DNA from: Escherichia coli
GTDB taxonomy: Bacteria > Pseudomonadota > Gammaproteobacteria > Enterobacterales > Enterobacteriaceae
Assembly: GCF_003334315.1 (NCBI RefSeq)
Contig: NZ_QOWR01000011.1
Length of the DNA stretch: 64,000 nucleotides
Strand: one strand, 5' to 3'
Made by a program: the position numbers and the translations under genes. Positions 3,082 through 49,490 of this stretch are shown in pieces. Positions within the stretch are counted from its first letter, which is position 1. Each line of letters opens with the position of its first letter. A model generated the notes under the pieces. It was not told where the DNA came from. It was given only the letters and a program-made list of their open reading frames with translations, and did no database searches.

Positions 3082-7431
<4,350 letters not shown>

Positions 7432-7435
7432 CCAA

Positions 7436-7481
<46 letters not shown>

Positions 7482-7482
7482 A

Positions 7483-10329
<2,847 letters not shown>

Positions 10330-10334
10330 AATAA

Positions 10335-11066
<732 letters not shown>

Positions 11067-11078
11067 GCTGAAGAAATA

Positions 11079-11763
<685 letters not shown>

Positions 11764-12237
11764 TTAACTTAAAGAGTCTGTTTCAGGACATGAAATATCC
11801 AATCCGGGCAGACGGGTAATGATTCTGCTCATCACCACACCTGCCAGCAATGCAGGAATGATGCGGACAACGAGACTGTCACCAGAAAGAATGTTTTCAA
11901 ACAACTCCGAGGAAGCCATGCCCTTAATATGTACAATAACTGCACAATAGATCTCGGTGATAACGACGCCACCTATGCCACCAGCCAGACAACGATAATT
12001 TTTCTGTGACCCGATCTTTTCCGGCAGACAGGCGACCATCACGCCGGTTAACAATGCAGGAATAGCTCCCGTAGTAATCGACAATAAGAGAAACAATGGA
12101 AGTACCTGTATTATTACCAAAAGAACCAGCGGTTCTTTTGCGAAGAATATGTAGAGGACAAGAAACAGAACACCAATTAACGGTCCTAAAACCGCAAAAT
12201 AAAGTCCGTGATGTATTACCCGACGTGAAACAGACAT
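11764..12237 (-). CDS. cbrB: Inner membrane protein CbrB
   Basis: Hydrophobic about 157-aa protein starting at internal Met (MSVSRRVIHHGLYFAVLG...); the ORF-track N-terminal extension was rejected; exact start uncertain. Confidence 0.7.
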   Translation of the reverse strand: MSVSRRVIHHGLYFAVLGPLIGVLFLVLYIFFAKEPLVLLVIIQVLPLFLLLSITTGAIPALLTGVMVACLPEKIGSQKNYRCLAGGIGGVVITEIYCAVIVHIKGMASSELFENILSGDSLVVRIIPALLAGVVMSRIITRLPGLDISCPETDSLS

Positions 12238-12284
12238 ATCAAACACCCTTAACTTACCTTTGAGCGCCAATTTAAGCGGGGTAA

Positions 12285-12300
12285 GTGAAGGGAGTGTGAA
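12285..12300 (-). promoter_or_regulatory. cre-tag (CreB response-regulator binding direct repeat) upstream of cbrB
   Basis: Minus strand reads TTCACactcccTTCAC, matching the TTCACnnnnnnTTCAC cre-tag consensus, about 50 bp upstream of the cbrB start. Confidence 0.65.
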
Positions 12301-12303
12301 GAA

Positions 12304-12969
12304 CTATGCCGTAATATCCCAACCACGCGCTTTCCACAGTTCCGGTAACTGCGAAAGATGGGTAAAGGTGGTGACTTTCGGGTGAACGATCGGCTTATTG
12401 TGCGGGTCGGCGCAGAAGTAGAACACTTCCATACCTGCGTCGATACCAGATTGCGCACCGGCAACTGAGTCATCAACCAGAATGCAGTTTTCTACATTTA
12501 CATTCATCGCTTTTGCCGCATGGAACATTAACGCCGGGTCTGGCTTCCAGCGCTGAATATCGTAGCCGCTGAACAGTTTATCCGGGAAGTAGTGCAACAT
12601 ATTCAGCTTGCCCATAGAATGCTGCATTTTGTTATTTGGGCCGTTAGATACCACACACATTGGCGCAGTGATCGCTGACAGGAGCGCTCCAGCCCCTTCG
12701 ATGGCTTCCAGTTCTGAATCGAACAGCCGAGCGACTTCTGCACGGTAAACGTGTTCAGCTTCTGTTTTCGCTAACGTAACACCATGTTCAAGGGAAACAA
12801 TATCGATAATTTCGTACAGTTTTACACCTTTGAAACGTTTGAATACCTCTTCAGGATCGAGCGTAATACCAAATTCCTGAAACATCGTTACATATGCGCG
12901 AGAGCAAATGACTTCACTGTCGACCAGCGTACCGTCGCAGTCGAAAAATACCGCTTCTATCCGGGACAT
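12304..12969 (-). CDS. yieH: HAD-superfamily phosphatase (6-phosphogluconate phosphatase-like)
   Basis: 221-aa ORF with HAD motif I FFDCDGTLVDSE near the N-terminus. Confidence 0.85.
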   Translation of the reverse strand: MSRIEAVFFDCDGTLVDSEVICSRAYVTMFQEFGITLDPEEVFKRFKGVKLYEIIDIVSLEHGVTLAKTEAEHVYRAEVARLFDSELEAIEGAGALLSAITAPMCVVSNGPNNKMQHSMGKLNMLHYFPDKLFSGYDIQRWKPDPALMFHAAKAMNVNVENCILVDDSVAGAQSGIDAGMEVFYFCADPHNKPIVHPKVTTFTHLSQLPELWKARGWDITA

Positions 12970-13133
12970 GCCTTTCCTTTTTAATCAGTTTAACGTTTTC
13001 GTAGAGCCGATTTGCGCAACGCAATCGTTGCCGTATAAGTAAATCCAATAAAAAAGTCTCTCACAAACGCGCCTATTGTCGCATTTTGGTATACGATAGC
13101 GACGGATTTTCCCTCCTTGTTCGGAAATAGATA

Positions 13134-14471
13134 ATGAGTCAACAACACACAACCCAGGCTTCTGGCCAGGGGATGCTGGAACGCGTGTTTAAACTGCGCG
13201 AACATGGCACGACGGCACGGACCGAAGTGATCGCTGGTTTTACCACCTTCCTGACGATGGTTTACATCGTTTTTGTTAACCCGCAAATTCTTGGCGTTGC
13301 TGGCATGGATACCAGCGCCGTCTTCGTCACTACCTGTCTGATTGCTGCATTCGGCAGTATTATGATGGGACTGTTTGCTAACCTGCCAGTTGCACTGGCA
13401 CCCGCTATGGGCCTGAATGCGTTCTTCGCTTTTGTCGTTGTGCAGGCGATGGGCTTGCCGTGGCAGGTCGGGATGGGCGCAATCTTCTGGGGCGCGATAG
13501 GTCTGCTGTTACTGACGATTTTCCGCGTTCGCTACTGGATGATTGCCAACATTCCGGTGAGTCTGCGTGTGGGCATCACCAGCGGTATCGGTCTGTTCAT
13601 TGGTATGATGGGACTGAAGAATGCAGGTGTGATTGTCGCTAACCCGGAAACGCTGGTCAGCATCGGTAATCTGACTTCTCACAGCGTGCTGCTGGGGATC
13701 CTCGGCTTCTTCATCATCGCCATTCTGGCCTCGCGCAACATTCACGCGGCGGTGCTGGTTTCCATCGTGGTGACAACGCTGCTGGGCTGGATGCTGGGTG
13801 ATGTCCACTATAATGGCATCGTTTCTGCGCCGCCGAGCGTAATGACTGTCGTGGGTCATGTAGATTTAGCCGGTTCGTTTAACCTCGGCCTGGCAGGGGT
13901 GATTTTCTCTTTCATGCTGGTCAACCTGTTTGACTCCTCCGGTACGCTGATTGGCGTGACCGATAAAGCAGGTCTGGCGGATGAGAAGGGTAAATTCCCG
14001 CGCATGAAGCAGGCGCTATATGTCGACAGTATCTCTTCTGTTACCGGTTCGTTTATCGGTACTTCTTCTGTTACGGCGTATATCGAGTCTTCTTCCGGCG
14101 TTTCTGTTGGTGGTCGTACCGGTCTGACGGCAGTCGTTGTTGGTCTGCTGTTCCTGCTGGTTATCTTTCTGTCGCCGCTGGCGGGGATGGTGCCAGGCTA
14201 CGCTGCAGCTGGTGCGCTGATTTACGTTGGCGTGCTGATGACTTCCAGTCTGGCACGCGTGAACTGGCAGGATCTTACTGAATCTGTTCCGGCGTTTATT
14301 ACCGCCGTGATGATGCCGTTCAGCTTTTCGATTACCGAAGGTATTGCGCTGGGCTTTATCTCCTACTGCGTAATGAAAATCGGTACCGGACGTCTGCGTG
14401 ATCTAAGCCCGTGCGTAATCATCGTTGCGCTGCTGTTTATCCTGAAGATTGTGTTTATCGACGCTCACTAA
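13134..14471 (+). CDS. adeP: Adenine permease (NCS2/AzgA family)
   Basis: 445-aa polytopic membrane ORF; divergent from yieH. Confidence 0.88.
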   Translation: MSQQHTTQASGQGMLERVFKLREHGTTARTEVIAGFTTFLTMVYIVFVNPQILGVAGMDTSAVFVTTCLIAAFGSIMMGLFANLPVALAPAMGLNAFFAFVVVQAMGLPWQVGMGAIFWGAIGLLLLTIFRVRYWMIANIPVSLRVGITSGIGLFIGMMGLKNAGVIVANPETLVSIGNLTSHSVLLGILGFFIIAILASRNIHAAVLVSIVVTTLLGWMLGDVHYNGIVSAPPSVMTVVGHVDLAGSFNLGLAGVIFSFMLVNLFDSSGTLIGVTDKAGLADEKGKFPRMKQALYVDSISSVTGSFIGTSSVTAYIESSSGVSVGGRTGLTAVVVGLLFLLVIFLSPLAGMVPGYAAAGALIYVGVLMTSSLARVNWQDLTESVPAFITAVMMPFSFSITEGIALGFISYCVMKIGTGRLRDLSPCVIIVALLFILKIVFIDAH

Positions 14472-14486
14472 AATCGATAGCGCGTT

Positions 14487-14526
14487 AAAAACCCGCCATG
14501 CATGATTGCTGGCGGGTTATTTATTT
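14487..14526. terminator. Bidirectional rho-independent terminator between adeP and yieF
   Basis: aaaaacccgccatgcatgattgctggcgggttatttattt: GC stem cccgcca/tggcggg flanked by A-run and T-run. Confidence 0.7.
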
Positions 14527-15091
14527 AGATCTTAACTCGCTGAATAAACTCACCAAATGCGGTCAATTGCCCGGTCAGGTGGTCCAGCGTACCCTGGTCA
14601 ATCACTTCTCCGGTTTGCGGATCAACTTTGTTCTGAATCACGCCGCCCATAAATTCCGGCTTGTTCATCACCATTGCATCGAGGAAAACCAGAATCTGGC
14701 GCAGGTGATACTGACAGCGCGCGCCGCCAATCACGCCCATTGAGCTGGTCTGAATCAATACCGGTTTACCGGCCAGCGGTTGATCCGGCAGGCGGGAAAG
14801 CCAGTCGATGGCATTTTTCAGCCCACCCGGTACCGAGTAGTTATATTCCGGCGTGACGATCACCACACCGTCAGCCTGACGGATCTGTTCCGCCAGAGCT
14901 TCAACCGTTGCTGGAAAACCGTCTTCCTGCTGTACGTCAGCGTCATACAAGGGAATGTCGGCAATGGAAGGTAACGCATTGACTTCCATGCTCGCCGGAG
15001 CAATTTTCGGCAGGGTACGTGCAACCATGCCATTAAATGAGCCTTTGCGCAGGCTCCCCAGTAACGTAACCACCTGCAATTTTTCAGACAT
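14525..15091 (-). CDS. chrR: NAD(P)H-dependent FMN reductase / chromate reductase
   Basis: 188-aa ORF, flavodoxin-like NADPH-dependent FMN reductase signature (LGSLRKGSFN). Confidence 0.85.
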   Translation of the reverse strand: MSEKLQVVTLLGSLRKGSFNGMVARTLPKIAPASMEVNALPSIADIPLYDADVQQEDGFPATVEALAEQIRQADGVVIVTPEYNYSVPGGLKNAIDWLSRLPDQPLAGKPVLIQTSSMGVIGGARCQYHLRQILVFLDAMVMNKPEFMGGVIQNKVDPQTGEVIDQGTLDHLTGQLTAFGEFIQRVKI

Positions 15092-15112
15092 GATGACTCC
15101 TGTGGTTGTCTA

Positions 15113-15874
15113 TCAATTTGGCGAAAAAGCCTTCACGGTAGAGAGTTGGGCAAAACGCATCATCCGGCTGGTAGGATTGTTGGCGCGGCTGTGAATATCC
15201 GGCAGGCTTTTCCAGCCGTGTTTGCCATCTAACTCCCAGACACTGAGCTTTTCAATCGTGGGCGTGACCGCCACGGACCACACCAGCACGTCTTCCGCGT
15301 CGCATAACGCTTCTACATGATTTACATGAGCACATTTCAGGCGTCCGGCAATGGGCAGCAGCTGCAGATCGCGCGGATCGTCATTCAAAACATCACCGGT
15401 TAGTTTTAGCACGCTTCGGCGCAGCGTGATGAGCTGCGCCCGCGCTTCGTTAGGATCGTTTTGTTTACTGATCCATAGCGATTCATTGCTGGAAAAGGTG
15501 TGGTTATCGGGCGCGTGTGGGCTATGAAACCCGCGCGTCGCACGCTGTAGTTCCATATCGAGACCACATTCACCTTCGGTTGTTAACGCCACGCCAACCA
15601 TATTCCCGGCATAGGAAATAGAAAACGAAGGCAAATTTTTATCACTGAAAACCGGTTTACCTTTCGGCAGGGTGACGATTTCCGGCAATTCGCCAATGCC
15701 ATACAGCATGAACATCAGTTCTGCGAGTAAACCTCTAGACGCCAGAAAACGGCTTTGACGATGAGGGGGAATGTTTCGGGCTTCTTGATGACACTGGGAG
15801 GGGAGACGAACAGAAATCAGATGTCCTTCCGTTAAAATCCCTCGGGCAAAGTGAGTCGCCATTTTTCGCTCCAT
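15113..15874 (-). CDS. yieE: Putative 4'-phosphopantetheinyl transferase family protein
   Basis: 253-aa ORF; synteny upstream of yieF; family assignment from recognition, not search. Confidence 0.7.
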   Translation of the reverse strand: MERKMATHFARGILTEGHLISVRLPSQCHQEARNIPPHRQSRFLASRGLLAELMFMLYGIGELPEIVTLPKGKPVFSDKNLPSFSISYAGNMVGVALTTEGECGLDMELQRATRGFHSPHAPDNHTFSSNESLWISKQNDPNEARAQLITLRRSVLKLTGDVLNDDPRDLQLLPIAGRLKCAHVNHVEALCDAEDVLVWSVAVTPTIEKLSVWELDGKHGWKSLPDIHSRANNPTSRMMRFAQLSTVKAFSPN

Positions 15875-16018
15875 GCTTAATGGTCCATTATGAATACAAG
15901 AGTAATCATTTACTGGAATGATGGACAGACTAAAGCGGCTAAAAGTTCGATTCAGACAAGCTTATTACAACTTTTTTACATTTTATTGTGAAATTGGGTC
16001 GCGTTTCATACGATTCGG

Positions 16019-16978
16019 TTATGCCATCGACGCGTAAAGGTTTTTAATGGTTTCCCGTAACCAGACGATCTTCGGATTATGGCTGTTCCGTTTATGCCAC
16101 AGCAGGGTAAAAGGAACTTCCAGCTTTTTTTGCTGGCTTTCGTCAAACGGGAGAGGAAGAGCAACCAACGGCAGTTGATGGAGTTGATTGTAGTACTGAC
16201 AGTAGCGCGGCGCGGTCGCCAGTAGCAGATTGTCGGGTTGCGCTGCCATAAACAGTGACTGCTCAAATTCCGGCAGGCTCATAGCAATCGTGCGTTCGCG
16301 CCCCAGCTCCTGTAACACATTGTCCAGCGCCCAGGTGTCGCTCTGTTCCCAGCAAATGCTGATATGCGGATAACGTAAAAAGGTGTCCAGATTCCACGTT
16401 TCATGCAGTGCCGGATGATCTTTGCGTAACCAGACGCAGGGTACATCACTAAACAGCACTTCATAATCAATGGCTAACGGTAGCGAGCTTAACAGCTCCC
16501 GCGAGCGAGGATGGCTTTCGCGACCGGAAAAACCAATATCCACTTCACCACGAGTAATGGCATCTAAGGAATCGTAATCCCAGTTACGTAGTTTGATGGT
16601 CGCCTGCGGGTAACGTTGGTAGATCCGTTTCGACAGCGCATTAAGCATGATCATCATCAGCGGCGATTCCGCCGCCAACTCAAACTTCAGGCCGCGCGGT
16701 GTCTGGTGGTGCGGTTTATCCAGCAGCAGATTGCTCATTTGCATCTATTCCGCCAGATTTTGCTCCATGCTGACCATCAGCGGTGTGGGCGACAGACCCA
16801 GCGGTGAGTTCACAAAGAGCGGGTCGTCAAACCACGCTCTTAACTTTGCCAGCGACTTACTCACCGCCGAAGGTGTCACGTTTATCCGCTTCGCCGCTTT
16901 GGTTACGCTGCGCTCCTGCATCAGCAGTTGCAGACAAAGCAGCAGATTGAGATCAAGCGTGGTGATGGATTTCTTCAT
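16019..16978 (-). pseudogene. yidZ: LysR-family transcriptional regulator YidZ interrupted by an in-frame TAG (amber) between the HTH and effector domains
   Basis: ORF-track pieces 16745..16987 (HTH: ...[16 protein letters not shown]...) and 16019..16744 (substrate-binding domain) are in the same frame, separated only by TAG at 16745-16747 (minus strand); combined length matches the expected 319 aa. Confidence 0.7.
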
Positions 16979-18128
16979 GAGCGGCAACGGGGCGTCCAGG
17001 CGCGACGAACATAATCAGCAACAGGCTCACTATGCTACAGGCAATCAGAATCCCGATCAGCATATTCCATGCGCCGATACCAACCACCGCTGCCAGCCAA
17101 ATCCACAGTGACGAACCGCAAACCTGCGCAATACCTAAGGTCGAGCTGGCTACGCCCGCGCGTAATGAAAACGGCCCTAACGCCTGACTCATCGCCACAC
17201 CAAAACCTACCGAGAAACCGGCGCAAATCAGCGTGATACCAAACAGAGAAACCGCATGGGAAGGTGAAACGGCAAGAGTGATCCCCGCCGCCAGGAATAA
17301 CACCTGCGAGGTGATCATCAACGTACGTGGCTTAAAAATTCCCAGCGCAAATGGCGTGGAGAATGAAACGGTCATGCTGACGCCAGCGGTCAGCGCCATA
17401 ATGGTGGCGTATTCACCGCGCTCAAACCCCATGATTTCCATCAGCAATACCGGTGACGTGTTGACGAAAGTGAGGATCACCGAAACGCTGAGGGTGGTGA
17501 TAACAACACGGCTGAGGAAAAAACGGTTAAGCAGCGACTCGCTATTTTCTCGTGGTTTATCCGAAGCTGCGGGGGCCGCTGGGCGCGTTTCTTTTAAAAT
17601 AAACAAAGACAACATCAGTACCGCGATGCCCATCATTGCCATCGCCCAGAACAGACTCTGCCACGGGAATTTAAGCATAATCAGATGTCCGAGCACTGGC
17701 GCTAACACCGGAATGATGCAGGTAATACCGTTGAGTAATGACAGCACTTTAGCCCGACGTCGATCATCCAGCGTGTCGCGCAAAATAGCGAACGCCACTA
17801 CGTAACAACAGCCTGCGCCCAACCCCTGTAGAAATCGGCCTGCAAGAAATAACGTGCTGGTTTCAGCCAGTGAACAGAACACCGAGGCAATAATAAATAG
17901 CGCCGCGCCGGGTATGGCGACCGGCTTTCTCCCTGAACGATCGGCCACTTTACCGGCAAATAACATCGCAGCTGCCATCCCCGCCAGATATACGGAGAAC
18001 GCAATATGCAACTGCGCTTCGCTGGCATTGAGATCGGCGGCGATGCGCGGTAAACCAACGAGGTACATATCAATCCCGGCGGGATAAAGTAAAACCAGGG
18101 CAAAACTACAAATCAAAAAGCGGGACAT
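16953..18128 (-). CDS. mdtL: MFS multidrug efflux transporter MdtL
   Basis: 391-aa 12-TM MFS ORF; 3' end overlaps the yidZ start by about 26 bp. Confidence 0.88.
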
Positions 18129-18259
18129 GGGCTAAAGCGTCCTGATAGTAAGGTGACGCAAAGCATACGTGGTGAAGGAGGATCAGGCGAGTTGCCATTT
18201 GGACATAAGTGATTTCCTGAGAGGCAAGAAGCCAGCGAATGGCTGGCTTCTTGAAGGAT

Positions 18260-19507
18260 TTAGCCAAATTTAGGTAACACGTTAAAGACGTTGCCGAACC
18301 AGCACAAAATCACGGTTATACCAAAGAGAATGACAATCGCCGGAATAAGATTGCCGCCCCAGACCGTGAACATCTGATTGGGAAACTTCTTGCGAGCTTT
18401 GATTGCAAGCACTGCGGGAATAATGACCGCCCAGATGGTGGCGCACAGCCCGGCACCGCCGATCCCGTAAATAAAGCCGTTCGGGAAGATCAGATACAAC
18501 AACGCAGGTGGCAGGAAGGTTAACAGCACGGTTTTGAAACGCCCGCCGTGGGAGTTATCAATCTTAAACAGGTCCGCCAGATAATCGAACAACCCCAGCG
18601 TGACACCAAAGAACGAACTGGCAACAGCTAAGTTAGAGAACACCAGCAGGCAAAACTCGATAATGCCGTGCTGTTTGGTGCCGAGGAACGATTTCACCAG
18701 CGAATCAACGTTGCCGCCTGAGGAGATAATCGCCTTAAAGCTTTCTCGCGGAATATTCCCCATGGTGCAATAGAGCCAGAAGAGATAAATCACCAGCGCC
18801 AGCAGCGAACCAAATACTACGCTTTTGATTAACTTATCTTTGCGTTTTCCATAGCAAATAATCAGGCTGGGAATATTGCCGTGGAAACCAAATGACGCCA
18901 GACACACCGGCAAAGCCATAAAGATATACGGGAAGTAAGACGTTCCCGCAGTGGAGCTGGTGGCGTCGCGCAGAATGGAGTAATCGACCTGGAAGAAAAA
19001 AGAACCAAACACGATCACAAAGGAGATAATCTTCAGCCCGAGGAACAATGAGGTAATACGACTGGCGGCTAACGAACTTAACCACAATACGCTGGCAACG
19101 AAAATGGCTGTGCAGATCCCGACAATACGTGGATTAGCGTGATAACCCAAATTCATTGATATCGTTTCACTAATGATCGCACCATTAGCAGAGATATAGG
19201 CATAAGTGAGGATATAGAGAACGAAGGCAACGGTAATACCGCTGATAATGTTCCAGGTGTTACCGATTAAATCTTTGGTGATGGTGTTAAAACTGGAGCC
19301 GACGGGATAATTTAAATTTGCTTCTAATAACAATAACCCGGAATGAAGCATTGAAAACCAGGCAATGATAAGGATAAAGGCACCCCAGAAAAACCAGGCA
19401 CCGGCAAGATCAACAGGTAAAGCAAACATACCTCCACCAATTACTGTACCTGCTATAACCATAACACCCCAAAATGCAGAGTGCTTTTTTTCAGCTTGAT
19501 CAGTCAT
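18260..19507 (-). CDS. tnaB: Low-affinity tryptophan permease
   Basis: 415-aa aromatic amino acid permease ORF downstream of tnaA. Confidence 0.9.
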   Translation of the reverse strand: MTDQAEKKHSAFWGVMVIAGTVIGGGMFALPVDLAGAWFFWGAFILIIAWFSMLHSGLLLLEANLNYPVGSSFNTITKDLIGNTWNIISGITVAFVLYILTYAYISANGAIISETISMNLGYHANPRIVGICTAIFVASVLWLSSLAASRITSLFLGLKIISFVIVFGSFFFQVDYSILRDATSSTAGTSYFPYIFMALPVCLASFGFHGNIPSLIICYGKRKDKLIKSVVFGSLLALVIYLFWLYCTMGNIPRESFKAIISSGGNVDSLVKSFLGTKQHGIIEFCLLVFSNLAVASSFFGVTLGLFDYLADLFKIDNSHGGRFKTVLLTFLPPALLYLIFPNGFIYGIGGAGLCATIWAVIIPAVLAIKARKKFPNQMFTVWGGNLIPAIVILFGITVILCWFGNVFNVLPKFG

Positions 19508-19597
19508 GATGCCACCTTTAGAGGAAGGCTATTTTTGTTATTGAGGATGTAGGGTAAGAGAGTGGCTAACATCCTTATAGCCACTCTGTAGTATTAA

Positions 19598-21013
19598 TTA
19601 AACTTCTTTAAGTTTTGCGGTGAAGTGACGCAATACTTTCGGTTCGTACGTAAAGGTTAATCCTTTAATATTCGCCGCGTTCTCTTTCACATGTTTAAAG
19701 GCTTCAATAATGAAGTCCATATGTGTTTGAGTATATGTTGCGCGCGGAATGGTTAAACGCAGCAGTTCAGCCGGGCATGGCAGTTGTTTACCGGTTTTCG
19801 GATCGCGGCCTAACAGGAAAGAGCCAATTTCTACCGCACGGATACCGGCGACTTTATACAGCTCGCAGGCCAGCGCCTGTGCCGGGAACTGGTCTGCCGG
19901 GATATGCGGCAACAGTTTACCGGCATCAACGAATGCCGCGTGACCGCCCGCCTGCTGGCAGACAACGCCAATCTCTTCCAGACCATCGACCAGATACTGT
20001 ACCTGCGCGATACGATAAGCCAGCCAGTCGAGATTCATGCCGTCATACAGACCTACCGCCAGACGCTCCATCGCGCCGCCTTCCAGGCCGCCATATGTCG
20101 GGAAGCCTTCCTGCACCACGCAAAGGGTTCTGCACTCGGTGTACACATCAAAGAAGCTGTCGTCTTTCATGCACAGCAGGCCGCCCATCGGCACCATCGC
20201 ATCTTTCTTGGCGGACATCGCCAGCATATCGGCATATTTGTAGGTTTCGCGGGTGATCTGCTCGATGGTCCAGTCTTTGTATTCTGCTTCACGCTGCTTG
20301 ATGAAATAGGCGTTTTCAGCAAAGCGCGCGGAGTCCATTACCACCGGAATATCGTATTTCTTCGCGATGCTGTACATCGCTTTTAAGTTTGCCAGTGAAA
20401 CCGGCTGACCACCTGCAGAGTTACTGGTGATGGTTGCAACGATATACGGCACGTTATTCGGACCAACTTCTTCAATACCGCGTTCTAATCCCTCAAGGTC
20501 AAAGTTGCCTTTAAAGTCGTAACGCACGCCCGTATCGAAGGCTTCTTTGATATAGACGTTACGCACGGTACAGCCGTTGATCTGGCTATGGCCCTGCGTG
20601 GTATCAAAGAAATAGTTAGAGAACGCCACCATTTTGCTGCGATCCAGGCCTTTTTCCTGCTCGCGTTTTTTAATCAGTACCGGAATATAGATTTGCTCTG
20701 CGCCACGGCCCTGGTGAGTCGGAATGGTGTATTGATAACCAAAGATATTTTTCACTGACTCGGCTAACGCATAGTAGCTACGACTGCCGCTGTAGGCTTC
20801 GTCGCCGCGCATCATCGCAGCCTGCATGCTCTGCGTCACCGCCCCGGTGCCGCTGTCGGTCAGTAAATCGATAAACACATCTTCGCTATCCAGCAGGAAC
20901 GGGTTCATACCGGATTTAATAATTGCCTCTTCACGATAAGCGCGAGTGGTACGTTTTACTGGCTCAATAACACGAATGCGGAACGGTTCAGGGAGATGTT
21001 TAAAGTTTTCCAT
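19598..21013 (-). CDS. tnaA: Tryptophanase (tryptophan indole-lyase), PLP-dependent
   Basis: 471 aa from internal Met ([24 protein letters not shown]...); the ORF-track start MKDYV is an upstream extension. Confidence 0.93.
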
Positions 21014-21233
21014 TACATAATCCTTCATTTATTTTAATTACAGTGATCCCTGTGAATATTACATCTGCTATACCGATTAATTCGCCAGATATATATGCAA
21101 GCACCATCATTTACTAAAACAAGTAAATAAACGAGAGATGACCTTTGCAAAAGGCAAAATTAAGATATAGCAAACAAATAGATCACATTGAATCTAATCG
21201 GTTTGGCTCTGGTGATGGCTACAGAAGGGCAAA

Positions 21234-21308
21234 TCAAGGGCGGTGATCGACAATTTTGTTGTCAATATTGAACCATTTTGAGGTCACACATATATGTAAG
21301 ATATTCAT
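21234..21308 (-). CDS. tnaC: tna operon leader peptide TnaC (24 aa)
   Basis: Minus-strand ORF atgaatatcttacatatatgtgtgacctcaaaatggttcaatattgacaacaaaattgtcgatcaccgcccttga = MNILHICVTSKWFNIDNKIVDHRP*; below the ORF-track size cutoff. Confidence 0.9.
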   Translation of the reverse strand: MNILHICVTSKWFNIDNKIVDHRP

Positions 21309-21470
21309 AATGCACTTATCCTCGCAAGACACGAGGCTACATTATTACACTCAGAGTTTTTGTCTATTCTGAAATTGTTTAAATGTGAATCGAATCACAA
21401 TCGTTCGGGGAGCAATATTAAATGCTTTTTTTAAAGATTATAAATTACGTAAGAATTTTAATGTTTAAAA
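21309..21470 (-). promoter_or_regulatory. tna promoter region (AT-rich, catabolite-controlled)
   Basis: AT-rich segment upstream of tnaC; position-based inference, exact -35/-10 not assigned. Confidence 0.4.
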
Positions 21471-21550
21471 AAAGGGTTGAGGAATAACAGGAGTGGTAAC
21501 AATGAAGCGAAGCCGCATCTGACAGTCAGAATGCGGCTTCGTAAGCGCGG

Positions 21551-22915
21551 TTACTTACCAATACAGAAGCTGGAGAAAATCCGCCCCAGCAGGTCGTCTG
21601 AAGTAAATTCCCCGGTGATTTCGCTTAAGTTCTGCTGTGCCAGACGCAACTCTTCCGCCAGCAGTTCACCTGCCCAGGCTCCCAACAGTTGCGCTTTGCC
21701 CTGTTGTAGATGTTCCGCTGCCTGTTCCAGCGCCTGTAGGTGGCGACGACGCGCCAGGAAGCCGCCTTCCATGTTGGTGTCAAAGCCCATGCTCTGTTTG
21801 AGATGGTTACGCAGCACGTCCACGCCTTCACCAGTCCTTGCCGAGAGACGAATTAACGCGTGACCGTTCACTTCACTCATTCCCAGCGTTTCGCCGGTGA
21901 TATCGGCTTTATTGCGCACCACGGTGATCGGCAGTTTCGCTGGCAGACGGGCAATAAATTCCGGCCAGATCTCTGCCGGATCCACGGCGTCTGTTGTGGT
22001 GCCATCGACCATAAACAGCACGCGGTCGGCCTGTTCAATTTCCTGCCACGCGCGCTCGATACCAATACGTTCTACTTCGTCACTGGCTTCACGTAGCCCG
22101 GCGGTATCGATGATATGCAGCGGCATTCCGTCAATGTGGATATGCTCACGCAGCACGTCACGCGTAGTTCCGGCGATATCGGTTACGATTGCCGCTTCAC
22201 GCCCCGCCAGCGCGTTTAACAGGCTCGATTTACCGGCGTTAGGACGTCCGGCAATCACCACTTTCATCCCTTCGCGCAACAAACTACCCTGACGTGCTTC
22301 AGCACGCACTGCATCAAGATCGGCAATAACGTCATTGAGCTGGGCTTCAATTTTTCCGTCGGAGAGGAAATCGATCTCTTCATCGGGGAAATCAATTGCC
22401 GCTTCGACGTAAATGCGCAAGTGGGTGAGGGCTTCTACCAGATGATTAACCCGTGCGGAGAATGCGCCTTGCAGCGAGTTAAGTGCCGAACGGGCCGCCT
22501 GTTCCGAACTGGCGTCGATAAGATCGGCAATCGCCTCGGCCTGGGCTAAGTCAAGTTTATCGTTAAGAAACGCGCGTTCGGAAAACTCACCAGGGCGAGC
22601 AATCCGCAGGCCGGGAATGGTCAGAATGCGTTTTAACAGCAGGTCGAGGATCACCGGACCGCCATGACCTTGCAGTTCCAGCACATCTTCGCCGGTGAAC
22701 GAGTTCGGGCCAGGGAACCATAGCGCAATCCCCTGATCGAGCACGCTGCCGTCGGCGTCTTTAAACGGAAGATAATCGGCGTAGCGCGGCTTAGGCAGTT
22801 TACCCAGCACGGTTTCGGCAACTTCACGGGCTTTGAAGCCGGAGATGCGCAGGATGCCAACGCCGCCACGTCCCGGAGGCGTGGCCTGGGCTACGATAGT
22901 GTCATTATCGCTCAT
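21551..22915 (-). CDS. mnmE: tRNA modification GTPase MnmE
   Basis: 454-aa ORF with G-domain motifs ([18 protein letters not shown]) and C-terminal CIGK. Confidence 0.93.
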
Positions 22916-22971
22916 GATGTTCCTGTTGCTTTGTGTGGCGGATGCGCGGTGCTTATCCGCCCTACGAAAAG

Positions 22972-23003
22972 AAAAAAGGCGGTCAACTGACCGCCCTTAT
23001 TTT
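22972..23003 (-). terminator. Hairpin plus T-run downstream of yidC
   Basis: Minus strand: ggcggtcagttgaccgcc followed by tttttt; a REP-like palindrome lies at about 22940-22968. Confidence 0.55.
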
Positions 23004-23020
23004 AGCGAAAACTCACCGAA

Positions 23021-24667
23021 TCAGGATTTTTTCTTCTCGCGGCTATGCAGGCCACGTTTTTCCAGACCACGGTAAATCAGCTGCTGCTGAATAATGGTTA
23101 CCAGGTTGCTGACGATATAGTACAGCACCAGACCTGACGGGAACCACAGGAAGAACACGGTGAAGATGACCGGCATAAAGGTCATGATCTTCTGCTGCAT
23201 CGGGTCGGTCACTGTGGTCGGCGACATCTTCTGAATGAAGAACATCGTTACGCCCATCAGGATCGGCAGGATGTAGTACGGGTCCTGTGCCGACAGGTCG
23301 TGGATCCACAGTGCAAACGGTGCCTGACGCAGTTCAACGGAACCCATCAGCATGTAGTACAACGCCAGGAAGATTGGCATCTGGATCAGCAGCGGGAAGC
23401 AGCCGCCCAGCGGGTTAACCTTCTCAGCTTTGTACAGCGCCATCATTTCCTGGCTGATACGCTGTTTGTCATCGCCCAGACGCTCACGCATTGCCTGAAT
23501 CTTCGGCTGCAACATACGCATCTTCGCCATGGAGGTGTACTGCGCTTTGGTCAGCGGGTACATGATGCCACGAACGATAAAGGTGATGATGATAATGGAG
23601 AAGCCCCAGTTACCCACAAAGCTATGGATCCATTTCAGCAGTTTGAACAGCGGCTGAGAGATGAACCACAACCAACCGTAATCAACGGTCAGATCCAGGT
23701 GCGGAGCAACAGCTGCCATTTTGTCCTGGATTTCCGGGCCAACCCACAGGGTGCTGTTCATCGCGCCAGTCTGACCAGGCTGAACCAATACCGGCTGAGA
23801 TTTATAGCCGATAGCGGCGATGCCGTTACCCAGATTAGCGGTATAGAAGTTGTTGGTACCGTCGTTATGCGGGATCCACGCCGTCGCGAAATACTGTTGC
23901 AGCATCGCCACCCAACCACCTTTCGAAGAGATGTTCAGGTTTTCGTTATCGGCAATGGTATCGAACTTGTATTTCTCATACTTCTCGTCAGGCGTGGAGT
24001 ACGCCGCGCCACGGAAGGTGTGCAGTGCGAAGTTGCTGCTTCCGGTATCGAGATGCGGTGGCAGAGTGATGGATTGCTTCAACTGACCAAACGAGGAGAT
24101 TTCCAGCGGTTTCTCGCCAGCGTTCTGCACGTTGTAGTTGACGTTGACAGCGTAATCACCACGTTTCAGGACAAACGTTTTGGTAAACGTGTTGCCTGCC
24201 GCGTCGGTATACGTCATCGGCACCTGCAGTTCGTTTTGACCTTCAGCCAGCACATAAGCGTCTTTTTCAACGTTATACAGCGGACGCGGGCCGTTAGCCG
24301 GGTTATCCGGGCCATCACGACCGGTCAGACCGCTCTGTGCCTGATAAATAAACTGCGGTGAAGTTTCCAACAGCTGGAACGGCTGGGTAGAGTTCAGCTC
24401 TTTCGGGTAAGCAGGCAGCAGAGCTTGCTCAACATCACCACCACGGGTGTTGATGGTCAGATCAAGCACGTCGGTCTTAACCGAGATCAGTTTCCCCTGG
24501 CCACTGGCCGGTACGCCCTGGTCGGCGGCGCTACCCGCTGCGGTGGTCGTTGTCTGCGTGGTCTGTTGGGCCTGAGGTTGCGGGTTTTTATCCTGCTCCC
24601 AGGCTTGCCAGATCATGAAAGACACGAACAGCAAAGCGATGACTAAAAGATTGCGTTGCGAATCCAT
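23021..24667 (-). CDS. yidC: Membrane protein insertase YidC
   Basis: 548-aa ORF; N-terminal TM, large periplasmic domain, conserved C-terminal 5-TM core. Confidence 0.93.
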
Positions 24668-24669
24668 CG

Positions 24670-24927
24670 TTAGTGTTCTCTGGTATCAAATGGTCCGGGC
24701 GGGACGGGATCGTCACCACCAGGGTGTAAAGGGTGGCATTTTAATACGCGTTTCACCGTCAACCAACTGCCTTTTATCACTCCAAACCTGCGCAATGCCT
24801 CAATTCCGTAGCTTGAACAGGTTGGAGTGAAACGACAATGCGGCCCGAGTAGCGGACTAATCAGGCGTTGATAGACCCGAATGAGGGCTATCAGGACCCG
24901 CGAGCCAGGCGACAGTGGCGGCGCCAT
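24670..24927 (-). CDS. yidD: Membrane protein insertion efficiency factor YidD
   Basis: 85-aa ORF; conserved rnpA-yidD-yidC arrangement; 5' end overlaps rnpA 3' end. Confidence 0.85.
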
Positions 24928-25250
24928 AATTTTTCCAACGCTTCCGAGAGAGCACGGTTATCGAGGTCGGCAACCCCTTTTTTCGCCACCACCACGAAAT
25001 CCATAGCCGGGAGTTCATGTTGGCGCAGACGGAAGCTTTCACGCGTCAGACGTTTAATCCGATTGCGTTCATGGGCGCGTCGAACGTTTTTCTTGGCGAC
25101 TGTAAGACCGATACGGGGATGCCCCAGCGAATTCAGGCGGCCGAGAATGGTAATTTGCGGCGTGCCAGCCCGTTGTGGCTGCTGGAAGACGAATGTGAAT
25201 TGACTGGGAGTTAACAAGCGTAACTCCCTGGGAAATGCGAGCTTAACCAC
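24891..25250 (-). CDS. rnpA: RNase P protein component
   Basis: 119-aa basic protein; conserved rpmH-rnpA order. Confidence 0.92.
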
Positions 25251-25266
25251 TCAGGGGTTAGCTTTA

Positions 25267-25419
<153 letters not shown>

Positions 25420-25772
25420 CTAAACTTGAATAAATTCAATGGCTTTATTGGATATCCGCCGAAAAATGAAACGATGGACACCGAAGCCATGGGTGATTAA
25501 AGAGGCCGGATTGTAATAATTGTACACTCCGGAGTCAATTCTCTTTCCTTATTTACCGCGCTTTTCCGCACCTTTTCGCAGGGAAAATGTACGACCTCAC
25601 ACCAGTGGAAACCAGCATGGCGCGCCGGGTGGAGGATTATACGGGCTGATGGGTAAAGCGCAAGGATCGTCCTGGATCTTTATTAGATCGATTAAGCCAA
25701 TTTTTGTCTATGGTCATTAAATTTTCCAATATGCGGCGTAAATCGTGCCCGCCTCGCGGCAGGATCGTTTAC

Positions 25773-25900
25773 ACTTAGCGAGTTCTGGAAAGTCCTGTGG
25801 ATAAATCGGGAAAATCTGTGAGAAACAGAAGATCTCTTGCGCAGTTTAGGCTATGATCCGCGGTCCCGATCGTTTTGCAGGATCTTGATCGGGCATATAA
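25773..25900. promoter_or_regulatory. GATC (Dam methylation) cluster in the dnaA promoter region
   Basis: At least six GATC sites within about 130 bp (25773, 25830, 25855, 25868, 25881, 25888). Confidence 0.65.
25796..25804. promoter_or_regulatory. Consensus DnaA box in the dnaA promoter region (autoregulation)
   Basis: tgtggataa (reverse complement TTATCCACA) is a perfect 9-mer DnaA box, about 210 bp upstream of the dnaA start. Confidence 0.75.
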
Positions 25901-26013
25901 CCGCAGACAGCGGTTCGTGCGTCACCCTCAAGCAGGGTCTTTTCGACGTACGTCAACAATCATGAATGTTTCAGCCTTAGTCATTATCGACTTTTGTTCG
26001 AGTGGAGTCCGCC

Positions 26014-27417
26014 GTGTCACTTTCGCTTTGGCAGCAGTGTCTTGCCCGATTGCAGGATGAGTTACCAGCCACAGAATTCAGTATGTGGATACGCCCATTG
26101 CAGGCGGAACTGAGCGATAACACGCTGGCCCTGTACGCGCCAAACCGTTTTGTCCTCGATTGGGTACGGGACAAGTACCTTAATAATATCAATGGACTGC
26201 TAACCAGTTTCTGCGGAGCGGATGCCCCACAGCTGCGTTTTGAAGTCGGCACCAAACCGGTGACGCAAACGCCACAAGCGGCAGTGACGAGCAACGTCGC
26301 GGCCCCTGCACAGGTGGCGCAAACGCAGCCGCAACGTGCTGCGCCTTCTACGCGCTCAGGTTGGGATAACGTCCCGGCCCCGGCAGAACCGACCTATCGT
26401 TCTAACGTAAACGTCAAACACACGTTTGATAACTTCGTTGAAGGTAAATCTAACCAACTGGCGCGCGCGGCGGCTCGCCAGGTGGCGGATAACCCTGGCG
26501 GTGCCTATAACCCGTTGTTCCTTTATGGCGGCACGGGTCTGGGTAAAACTCACCTGCTGCATGCGGTGGGTAACGGCATTATGGCGCGCAAGCCGAATGC
26601 CAAAGTGGTTTATATGCACTCCGAGCGCTTTGTTCAGGACATGGTTAAAGCCCTGCAAAACAACGCGATCGAAGAGTTTAAACGCTACTACCGTTCCGTA
26701 GATGCACTGCTGATCGACGATATTCAGTTTTTTGCTAATAAAGAACGATCTCAGGAAGAGTTTTTCCACACCTTCAACGCCCTGCTGGAAGGTAATCAAC
26801 AGATCATTCTCACCTCGGATCGCTATCCGAAAGAGATCAACGGCGTTGAGGATCGTTTGAAATCCCGCTTCGGTTGGGGACTGACTGTGGCGATCGAACC
26901 GCCAGAGCTGGAAACCCGTGTGGCGATCCTGATGAAAAAGGCCGACGAAAACGACATTCGTTTGCCGGGCGAAGTGGCGTTCTTTATCGCCAAGCGTCTA
27001 CGATCTAACGTACGTGAGCTGGAAGGGGCGCTGAACCGCGTCATTGCCAATGCCAACTTTACCGGACGGGCGATCACCATCGACTTCGTGCGTGAGGCGC
27101 TGCGCGACTTGCTGGCATTGCAGGAAAAACTGGTCACCATCGACAATATTCAGAAGACGGTGGCGGAGTACTACAAGATCAAAGTCGCGGATCTCCTTTC
27201 CAAGCGTCGATCCCGCTCGGTGGCGCGTCCGCGCCAGATGGCGATGGCGCTGGCGAAAGAGCTGACTAACCACAGTCTGCCGGAGATTGGCGATGCGTTT
27301 GGTGGCCGTGACCACACGACGGTGCTTCATGCCTGCCGTAAGATCGAGCAGTTGCGTGAAGAGAGCCACGATATCAAAGAAGATTTTTCAAATTTAATCA
27401 GAACATTGTCATCGTAA
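26014..27417 (+). CDS. dnaA: Chromosomal replication initiator DnaA
   Basis: 467 aa from GTG 26014 ([13 protein letters not shown]...); AAA+ Walker [12 protein letters not shown]; C-terminal DNA-binding domain. Confidence 0.95.
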
Positions 27418-32277: not shown

Positions 32278-32676
32278 ATGGGGCTTTTTGATGAAGTTGT
32301 CGGTGCCTTTCTGAAAGGCGATGCGGGGAAATATCAGGCTATTTTAAGTTGAGTTGAGGAGCAGGGCGGCATTCAGGTGCTGCTGGAAAAACTGCAAAGT
32401 GGCGGCTTAGGGGCCATTCTCTCAACCTGGCTGAGTAATCAACAGGGCAATCAATCGGTTAGTGGCGAGCAACTGGAATCGGCGCTCGGCACAAATGCGG
32501 TGTCCGATCTCGGGCAAAAACTTGGCGTGGATACCAGTACAGCTTCCAGTTTACTGGCAGAACAATTGCCGAAGATTATTGATGCGCTCTCACCGCAAGG
32601 TGAAGTGTCACCACAAGCCAATAACGATCTGCTTTCCGCAGGCATGGAACTGCTGAAAGGGAAACTCTTCCGCTAA
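32278..32676 (+). pseudogene. yidB: Small DUF937-type protein YidB interrupted by an in-frame TGA at codon 25
   Basis: ATG 32278 MGLFDEVVGAFLKGDAGKYQAILS then TGA (32350-32352), and the same frame continues VEEQGGIQVLLEKLQSGG... to 32676; the ORF track only reports the downstream piece 32377..32676. Confidence 0.65.

Positions 32677-46139: not shown

Positions 46140-49490
<3,351 letters not shown>

Follow-up and report, generated by a model that had tools for sequence, protein, structure and literature searches.

The yidZ Locus and Its Neighbourhood

The window, by which we mean the whole stretch of 64,000 nucleotides analysed here, is a piece of the Escherichia coli chromosome that extends from pstC to uhpT and has dnaA in between. 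On its minus strand, at 16019..16978, lies yidZ, which codes for a LysR-type transcriptional regulator (LTTR) of 319 codons plus stop and is present in the window as a pseudogene allele, broken by an in-frame stop. The gene had been named yidZ in the original prediction, and this name is borne out by a 99.9% match (1 mismatch in 963 bases) to the annotated yidZ of many genomes and by the gene order tnaB-mdtL-yidZ-yieE-yieF-adeP, which is the same as in the relatives; sequence identity and the mdtL-yidZ-yieE locus together identify the gene as the orthologue of YidZ-coding genes elsewhere. In these relatives, annotated yidZ measures 960 nt and codes for 319 aa, and the gene is essentially full-length in 5,422 of the 5,426 complete E. 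coli genomes. As the window departs from this by one base change, the split frame described below is not a chance pattern of open reading frames (ORFs).

Directly upstream, the gene of the MFS efflux transporter MdtL is intact (16953..18128, minus strand, from the ORF list and synteny), and its last 26 nt overlap the start of yidZ, an overlap that had been predicted as well. Such an arrangement is consistent with one operon and with translational coupling of the two genes. A scan for promoters and terminators near yidZ returned sites no more numerous than in shuffled sequence, and for this reason it says nothing on polarity.

An Amber Codon Between the Two Domains

At the break, the minus strand reads ...CTG GCG GAA TAG ATG CAA ATG AGC..., which translates to LAE-stop-MQMS. 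The amber codon occupies 16745..16747 (minus strand) and corresponds to codon 78 of yidZ, so that the allele is referred to as W78am; according to the sequence and its alignment to relatives, the mutated base is 16746, where the plus strand has T in the window and C in the relatives. When 16019..16978 is translated in one frame, 77 residues are followed by the stop, by 241 further residues and by the natural stop, and 77 + 1 + 241 gives the 319 codons of the annotated gene. The N-terminal fragment (16748..16978, minus strand, from translation and Pfam), counted from the annotated ATG, comprises 77 codons with the winged helix-turn-helix (HTH) and the beginning of the interdomain linker. In the ORF list it appears as 16745..16987, which amounts to 80 aa if counted from an upstream TTG and to 77 aa if the annotated ATG at 16978 is taken as the start. 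The C-terminal ORF (16019..16744, minus strand, from the ORF list and Pfam) has 241 codons and a stop, begins at the native Met79 codon right after TAG, contains the whole effector-binding domain, and shows no further disabling change relative to intact alleles.

The position of the stop with respect to the domains has been determined on the reconstructed YidZ. HTH_1 (PF00126, E = 1.7e-13) covers residues 10-66, that is 16781..16951 of the window, and lies wholly upstream of the stop, while LysR_substrate (PF03466, E = 1.8e-16) covers residues 101-313, or 16040..16678, and lies wholly downstream. With the first domain ending at residue 66 and the second beginning at 101, the stop at codon 78 falls into the interdomain linker. 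When YidZ is aligned to 2esn and DntR, two full-length LTTR structures, the alignment continues unbroken through the stretch around this codon. The original prediction had described the sequence at the break, the two same-frame ORFs parted by TAG only, their sum of 319, the location of the stop between the HTH and the effector domain and the ATG directly behind it, and each of these elements has been recovered in the sequence, its translation, the ORF list or the domain search.

A functional member of the family would have one frame of ~300-320 codons in which both domains are uninterrupted. Since the window has TAG at codon 78 instead, its yidZ is a disrupted allele (pseudogene) and not such a member. 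It has the marks of an internal-stop pseudogene, with TAG in place of TGG and a truncated product of 77 out of 319 residues (24%, where well under 80% serves as the criterion). Gene callers that were run on other assemblies of the W78am allele have likewise reported a 77-aa HTH_1 product.

Comparison with Intact Alleles and Reality of the Mutation

Intact yidZ (b3711), as found in the form of allele WP_001460148.1 in strains CP53, S171-1, 30EVA2 and RCAD0514, has the same locus and synteny as the window, and the two share 962 of 963 bases, every residue but 78 and the make-up of HTH_1 and LysR_substrate. In contrast to the intact allele, the window has TAG for TGG at codon 78, and normal decoding cannot make a single 319-aa polypeptide from it. 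The alignment to CP53 contains one difference only; it lies at the second base of codon 78 (window TAG, CP53 TGG) and is the single G-to-A change that had been postulated. Codon 78 is TGG also in S171-1 and 30EVA2, and TAG is a difference specific to the window against RCAD0514 as well as against S171-1. Over the whole 64 kb, 9 substitutions, a 1-bp indel and two insertions of IS1 separate the window from S171-1, the nearest complete genome. Taking into account that the rest of yidZ is undecayed, with 1 mismatch in 963 bases to intact alleles, the mutation is recent, as judged from the sequence.

A search for exact copies of the 77-aa product led to a 30.9-kb contig from an independent Logan assembly of read set SRR1122540. 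It matches the window at 100% identity, TAG included, both in a comparison of 6.2 kb and in one whose wider flanks extended it to 20,234 bp (6745..26978); the contig is recorded in 3 samples and has the private 1-bp deletion of the window in bglB (412-aa product) as well. Repeated sequencing of the clone of the window has thus given one and the same outcome, so an assembly error is very unlikely, and the lesion on which the pseudogene status depends is real. If codon 78 were truly TGG and yidZ intact, one would understand why the allele occurs in no complete genome, and the private loss of 1 bp from a G run of bglB is indeed of a kind that may be an artefact. Against this stand the independent assembly, in which the TAG recurs together with the bglB deletion over 20.2 kb and in 3 samples, the presence of the codon-78 stop on other haplotypes of unrelated read sets, and the nature of the change, as a substitution in non-repetitive sequence is an atypical consensus error. 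A sequencing or assembly error is therefore hardly credible. A comparison with reference yidZ alleles, which the original prediction had called for, has given TGG in the close relatives and, for the four 80-bp contexts queried, a codon-78 stop in no complete genome, and the TGG that reads might have revealed at this codon has not been seen in the SRR1122540 assembly, which has TAG there.

Rarity and Recurrence of Stops at Codon 78

The frequency of the allele has been assessed with queries of 80 bp centred on codon 78, for which one mismatch already lowers the identity below 99%, in four contexts, namely the TAG of the window, a K-12-like TAG, the TAG of two further sequences (L081/L077) and a TGA variant. 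Of the 5,426 complete RefSeq genomes of E. coli, ~5,411 contain the segment, and in these none of the four contexts found an exact match; the TAG context had no match either in a collection with one genome per GTDB species. The allele is accordingly rare, at less than roughly 1 in 5,000 finished genomes.

Public read-set assemblies, on the other hand, contain codon-78 stops on about six haplotype backgrounds. Beyond the clone of the window, TAG is carried by the sequences labelled L018, L019, L077 and L081. A K-12-like haplotype has it in two strains (ERR4027834 and SRR33896483), each of which has 3-4 SNPs relative to MG1655 in 6.2 kb; as they depart from the window at positions only 2 bp and 16 bp away from the mutated base, this K-12-like TAG has an independent origin. 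TAG also occurs on a divergent mdtL background in SRR32881812 and GCA_052418355.1 (L077, L081), the contig of the latter having been seen in 17 samples (L081). As the tract from ~15898 to 16777 is identical in the window, L077 and L081, these three could share the stop by recombination and not by separate mutation. Two further haplotypes, in SRR11484440 and SRR23715445 (L074, L084), have TGA at codon 78. From the surrounding haplotypes, at least three origins are secure (window-type TAG, K-12-type TAG and TGA), and there may have been up to six.

Several matches were set aside. When the 241-aa ORF was looked up exactly, the matches listed (10) were contigs that start 0-2 bases before the ATG, and where two extra bases were present they read GG, as in TGG, which marks the matches as partial calls at contig edges and not as amber alleles. 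Among the matches to the 77-aa product, L021-L026 are contig-end artefacts and not alleles, and in L020 (GCA_003859075.1) a run of N begins within the codon. As a separate observation, the cbrC-yieK stretch (equivalent to ~11100-11750) of the W78am carrier ERR4027834 (L085) is rearranged or partly deleted, with cbrC uncalled and yieK in two pieces, so that this lineage has further lesions nearby.

Other Lesions in yidZ

For comparison, the products expected from other nonsense transitions in yidZ have been looked up exactly as controls. Q73*, W49* and, on the haplotype of the window, W133* yielded contig-edge artefacts only. True alleles were obtained for Q80* (CAA>TAA) and for Q92* (CAG>TAG), the latter on each of the two major protein haplotypes; a query with a single 80-bp context did not find Q92* in complete genomes. 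The look-up of the 239-aa downstream product has added E72* (GAG>TAG), deletions of 4 bp and ~77 bp, two of 1 bp and a rearrangement. The 4-bp deletion (L076) removes the equivalent of 16746..16749 of the window, between ATG..ATG repeats, and hence sits at the spot of codon 78. Two of the lesions are in metagenome scaffolds: in L079, ~77 bp are replaced by 10 bp and the end of the HTH region is lost, and in L082 two 1-bp deletions lead to a 463-aa product that continues from mdtL into the yidZ region. Like W78am, the lesions E72*, W78opal, Q80*, Q92* and the 4-bp and ~77-bp deletions fall into the N-terminal or linker part, would be expected to truncate the protein after the HTH, and are each rare; unlike W78am, they concern another codon or are of another lesion type, and an ATG directly next to the stop exists only for codons 78 and 80. 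In sum, yidZ is sporadically broken, in many ways and in many E. coli lineages.

W78* has been the most often seen among the nonsense sites that could be tested, in a comparison that is biased, since exact-product look-ups favour short and conserved products, a Trp codon offers two nonsense transitions and clones are sampled unevenly. The occurrence of codon-78 stops on about six backgrounds, as both TAG and TGA, together with the 4-bp deletion at the same spot (L076) and the lack of true alleles at three of the five control sites (Q73*, W49*, W133*), leaves room, besides neutral decay, for a mutational hotspot at codon 78 or for positive selection of YidZ loss in some niches, either of which would be compatible with loss of function. 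These options are nevertheless unlikely, as the controls Q80* and Q92* did return true alleles, Q92* even on two haplotypes, as two nonsense transitions are open to a Trp codon, and as the stops of the window, L077 and L081 may be shared via recombination. By a rough estimate, moreover, any near-neutral transition is expected to turn up a few times at the sequencing depth that is publicly available for E. coli. Deamination at a Dcm site has been rejected as the cause of a hotspot, the plus-strand context GCATCCATTCC not being CCWGG. Published changes in yidZ (a deletion associated with an IS, in an irradiated mutant of W3110, and A38T, in a sanguinarine study) are uninformative for W78am.

Expected Consequence for YidZ

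We consider it probable, at about 0.8, that the window has a recent, clone-specific loss-of-function allele of yidZ, a dispensable LysR-type regulator gene, and that it arose by spontaneous mutation. A G-to-A transition has converted Trp78 from TGG to the amber codon TAG, and translation from the native start, coupled to that of mdtL, would stop after 77 residues. The product would consist of the winged HTH and would be devoid of most of the linker helix by which LTTRs dimerise, as well as of the whole effector-binding and oligomerisation domain. DNA binding by LTTRs needs dimerisation through the linker helix and tetramerisation driven by the effector domains, both in cis. Since the DNA-binding domains depend on these contacts, the 77-residue fragment should bind palindromic targets poorly, and we infer that the strain would act as a yidZ null or a strong hypomorph. 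As a counterpoint, the HTH fragment could keep some DNA binding.

Regarding the physiological effect, a yidZ knockout is viable, which makes the gene dispensable, and shows 74 differentially expressed genes, among them gadA, gadBC, hdeAB, mal and rbs, while 118 chromosomal ChIP-exo sites have been reported for YidZ (PMC8464067). The clone of the window would thus be expected to resemble the knockout in the acid-resistance genes gad/hde and in the mal/rbs genes. The sporadic inactivation of yidZ and the repeated hits at codon 78 fit weak selection on a poorly understood regulator, and natural null alleles of this kind could be used to study the function of YidZ.

Possible Restart and Read-Through

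The nucleotides behind the amber codon offer two candidate restart codons (16736..16744, minus strand), ATG79 at 16742..16744, directly after TAG, and ATG81 at 16736..16738, 6 nt beyond. A weak Shine-Dalgarno-like element, GGCGGA (16749..16754, minus strand), precedes ATG79 by 4 nt and ATG81 by 10 nt, a spacing that is non-ideal for either of them. Its calculated duplex with the 16S 3′ end has an energy of −4.8 kcal/mol; the 29 annotated starts of the region have a median of −5.1, and the native yidZ start, which is coupled to mdtL, has −3.0. The gene caller applied to the Logan assemblies has begun a 239-aa product at ATG81. From these features, restart at ATG79 or ATG81 is plausible: ribosomes halted at UAG may resume at one of the two codons and thus deliver some effector-domain polypeptide, which in the absence of the HTH would not bind DNA. 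The combination of the UAG-AUG junction with the weak Shine-Dalgarno-like element would in this way allow a second polypeptide and is a further counterpoint to a complete null.

The closest analogy, a comparison of arrangement between unrelated families, may be found in early amber mutants of lacI, for which Platt, Files, Weber and Miller reportedly demonstrated restart proteins biochemically in the 1970s. In both cases, an early nonsense codon parts the N-terminal DNA-binding region from the core for ligand binding and oligomerisation, and a nearby restart gives, or in yidZ would give, a core that does not bind DNA. The lacI restart differs in having been demonstrated biochemically, whereas that of yidZ is suggested by sequence features, the UAG-AUG junction and the weak Shine-Dalgarno-like element; in addition, LacI and the LTTRs are unrelated.

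One may go further and postulate a functional split regulator, in which translation stops at UAG and restarts at AUG79 or AUG81, and separate HTH and effector polypeptides have new or residual activity. The adjoining stop and start, an element whose −4.8 kcal/mol come near the regional median of −5.1, the 239-aa product from ATG81 called by gene callers and several independent disruptions of the linker (E72*, W78*, Q80*, Q92*) speak for such a device. The clustering in the linker is, however, largely an ascertainment effect, as the look-ups targeted products that end or start there; there are also frameshifts and deletions from which no clean split can result, the alleles are all rare and have not become fixed in any major lineage, and the above-mentioned need of LTTRs for dimerisation and tetramerisation in cis conflicts with two free polypeptides. 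We therefore regard a functional split as improbable. The stronger claim that the linker or codon 78 is hit repeatedly because a cut there is advantageous, with UAG-AUG yielding a free HTH and a free effector domain as a recurrent adaptive switch and not as decay, is likewise improbable; under it, the split would rewire or switch off a regulator that binds the chromosome at over 100 sites.

Read-through of the amber codon, by a suppressor tRNA or by near-cognate decoding, would have to supply enough full-length YidZ for function. The intact, undecayed state of the 241 downstream codons and the presence of the stop in several natural lineages speak for it, but the absence of decay is equally expected of a very recent mutation, and only ~10 changes in 64 kb separate the window from its nearest relative. 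Codon 78 is TGA in two lineages (L074, L084), and TAA and frameshifts occur at neighbouring positions; an amber suppressor would rescue none of these, so the alleles at and next to codon 78 argue against a design that depends on suppression. The 64-kb window contains no tRNA gene, wild isolates seldom carry suppressors, and basal read-through of UAG in E. coli amounts to ~1% or less. A programmed recoding signal would be conserved in orthologues, yet a stop at codon 78, in three TAG contexts and one TGA context, occurs in 0 of ~5,411 complete genomes, and the closest relatives have TGG. Functional read-through is consequently highly improbable. Most likely, W78am is an ordinary, rare, clone-specific gene-breaking mutation of the internal-stop kind that annotation pipelines commonly flag as a pseudogene, and not a special coding device; yidZ of this clone should be annotated as a pseudogene (W78am), which has little import beyond the annotation of the strain.

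Neighbouring Pseudogenes and IS1 Sites

Other genes of the window allow W78am to be placed among routine internal-stop pseudogenes. In yidB (32278-32676, plus strand), codon 25 is an in-frame stop (..AILS*VEEQ..), which is common to S171-1, 30EVA2 and RCAD0514 and is annotated there as an internal-stop pseudogene. Like the stop in yidZ, those in yidB and, in related strains, in bglG are single-lineage stops in non-essential genes; they differ in that the yidB stop is common to the whole group of close relatives, whereas that of yidZ is, among these, private to the clone of the window.

A second clone-private gene-inactivating mutation is found ~9.5 kb from the yidZ stop. In the bglB ORF (6038..7276, plus strand), 1 bp is deleted in a G run at 7246-7248, which is GGG in the window and GGGG in relatives, and the resulting frameshift leads to 412 aa rather than 464; the context of the deletion had an exact match in 0 of the 4,234 complete genomes that contain the segment. 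The closest relatives differ from the window mainly by movements of IS1, as sites that are empty in the window are filled in them: IS1 occupies the tnaC-mnmE spacer and yidL in S171-1, and bglB in RCAD0514 and 30EVA2, corresponding to the empty sites at ~21425-21432 (tnaC-mnmE spacer), ~49364-49371 (yidL) and ~7304-7313 (3′ part of bglB).
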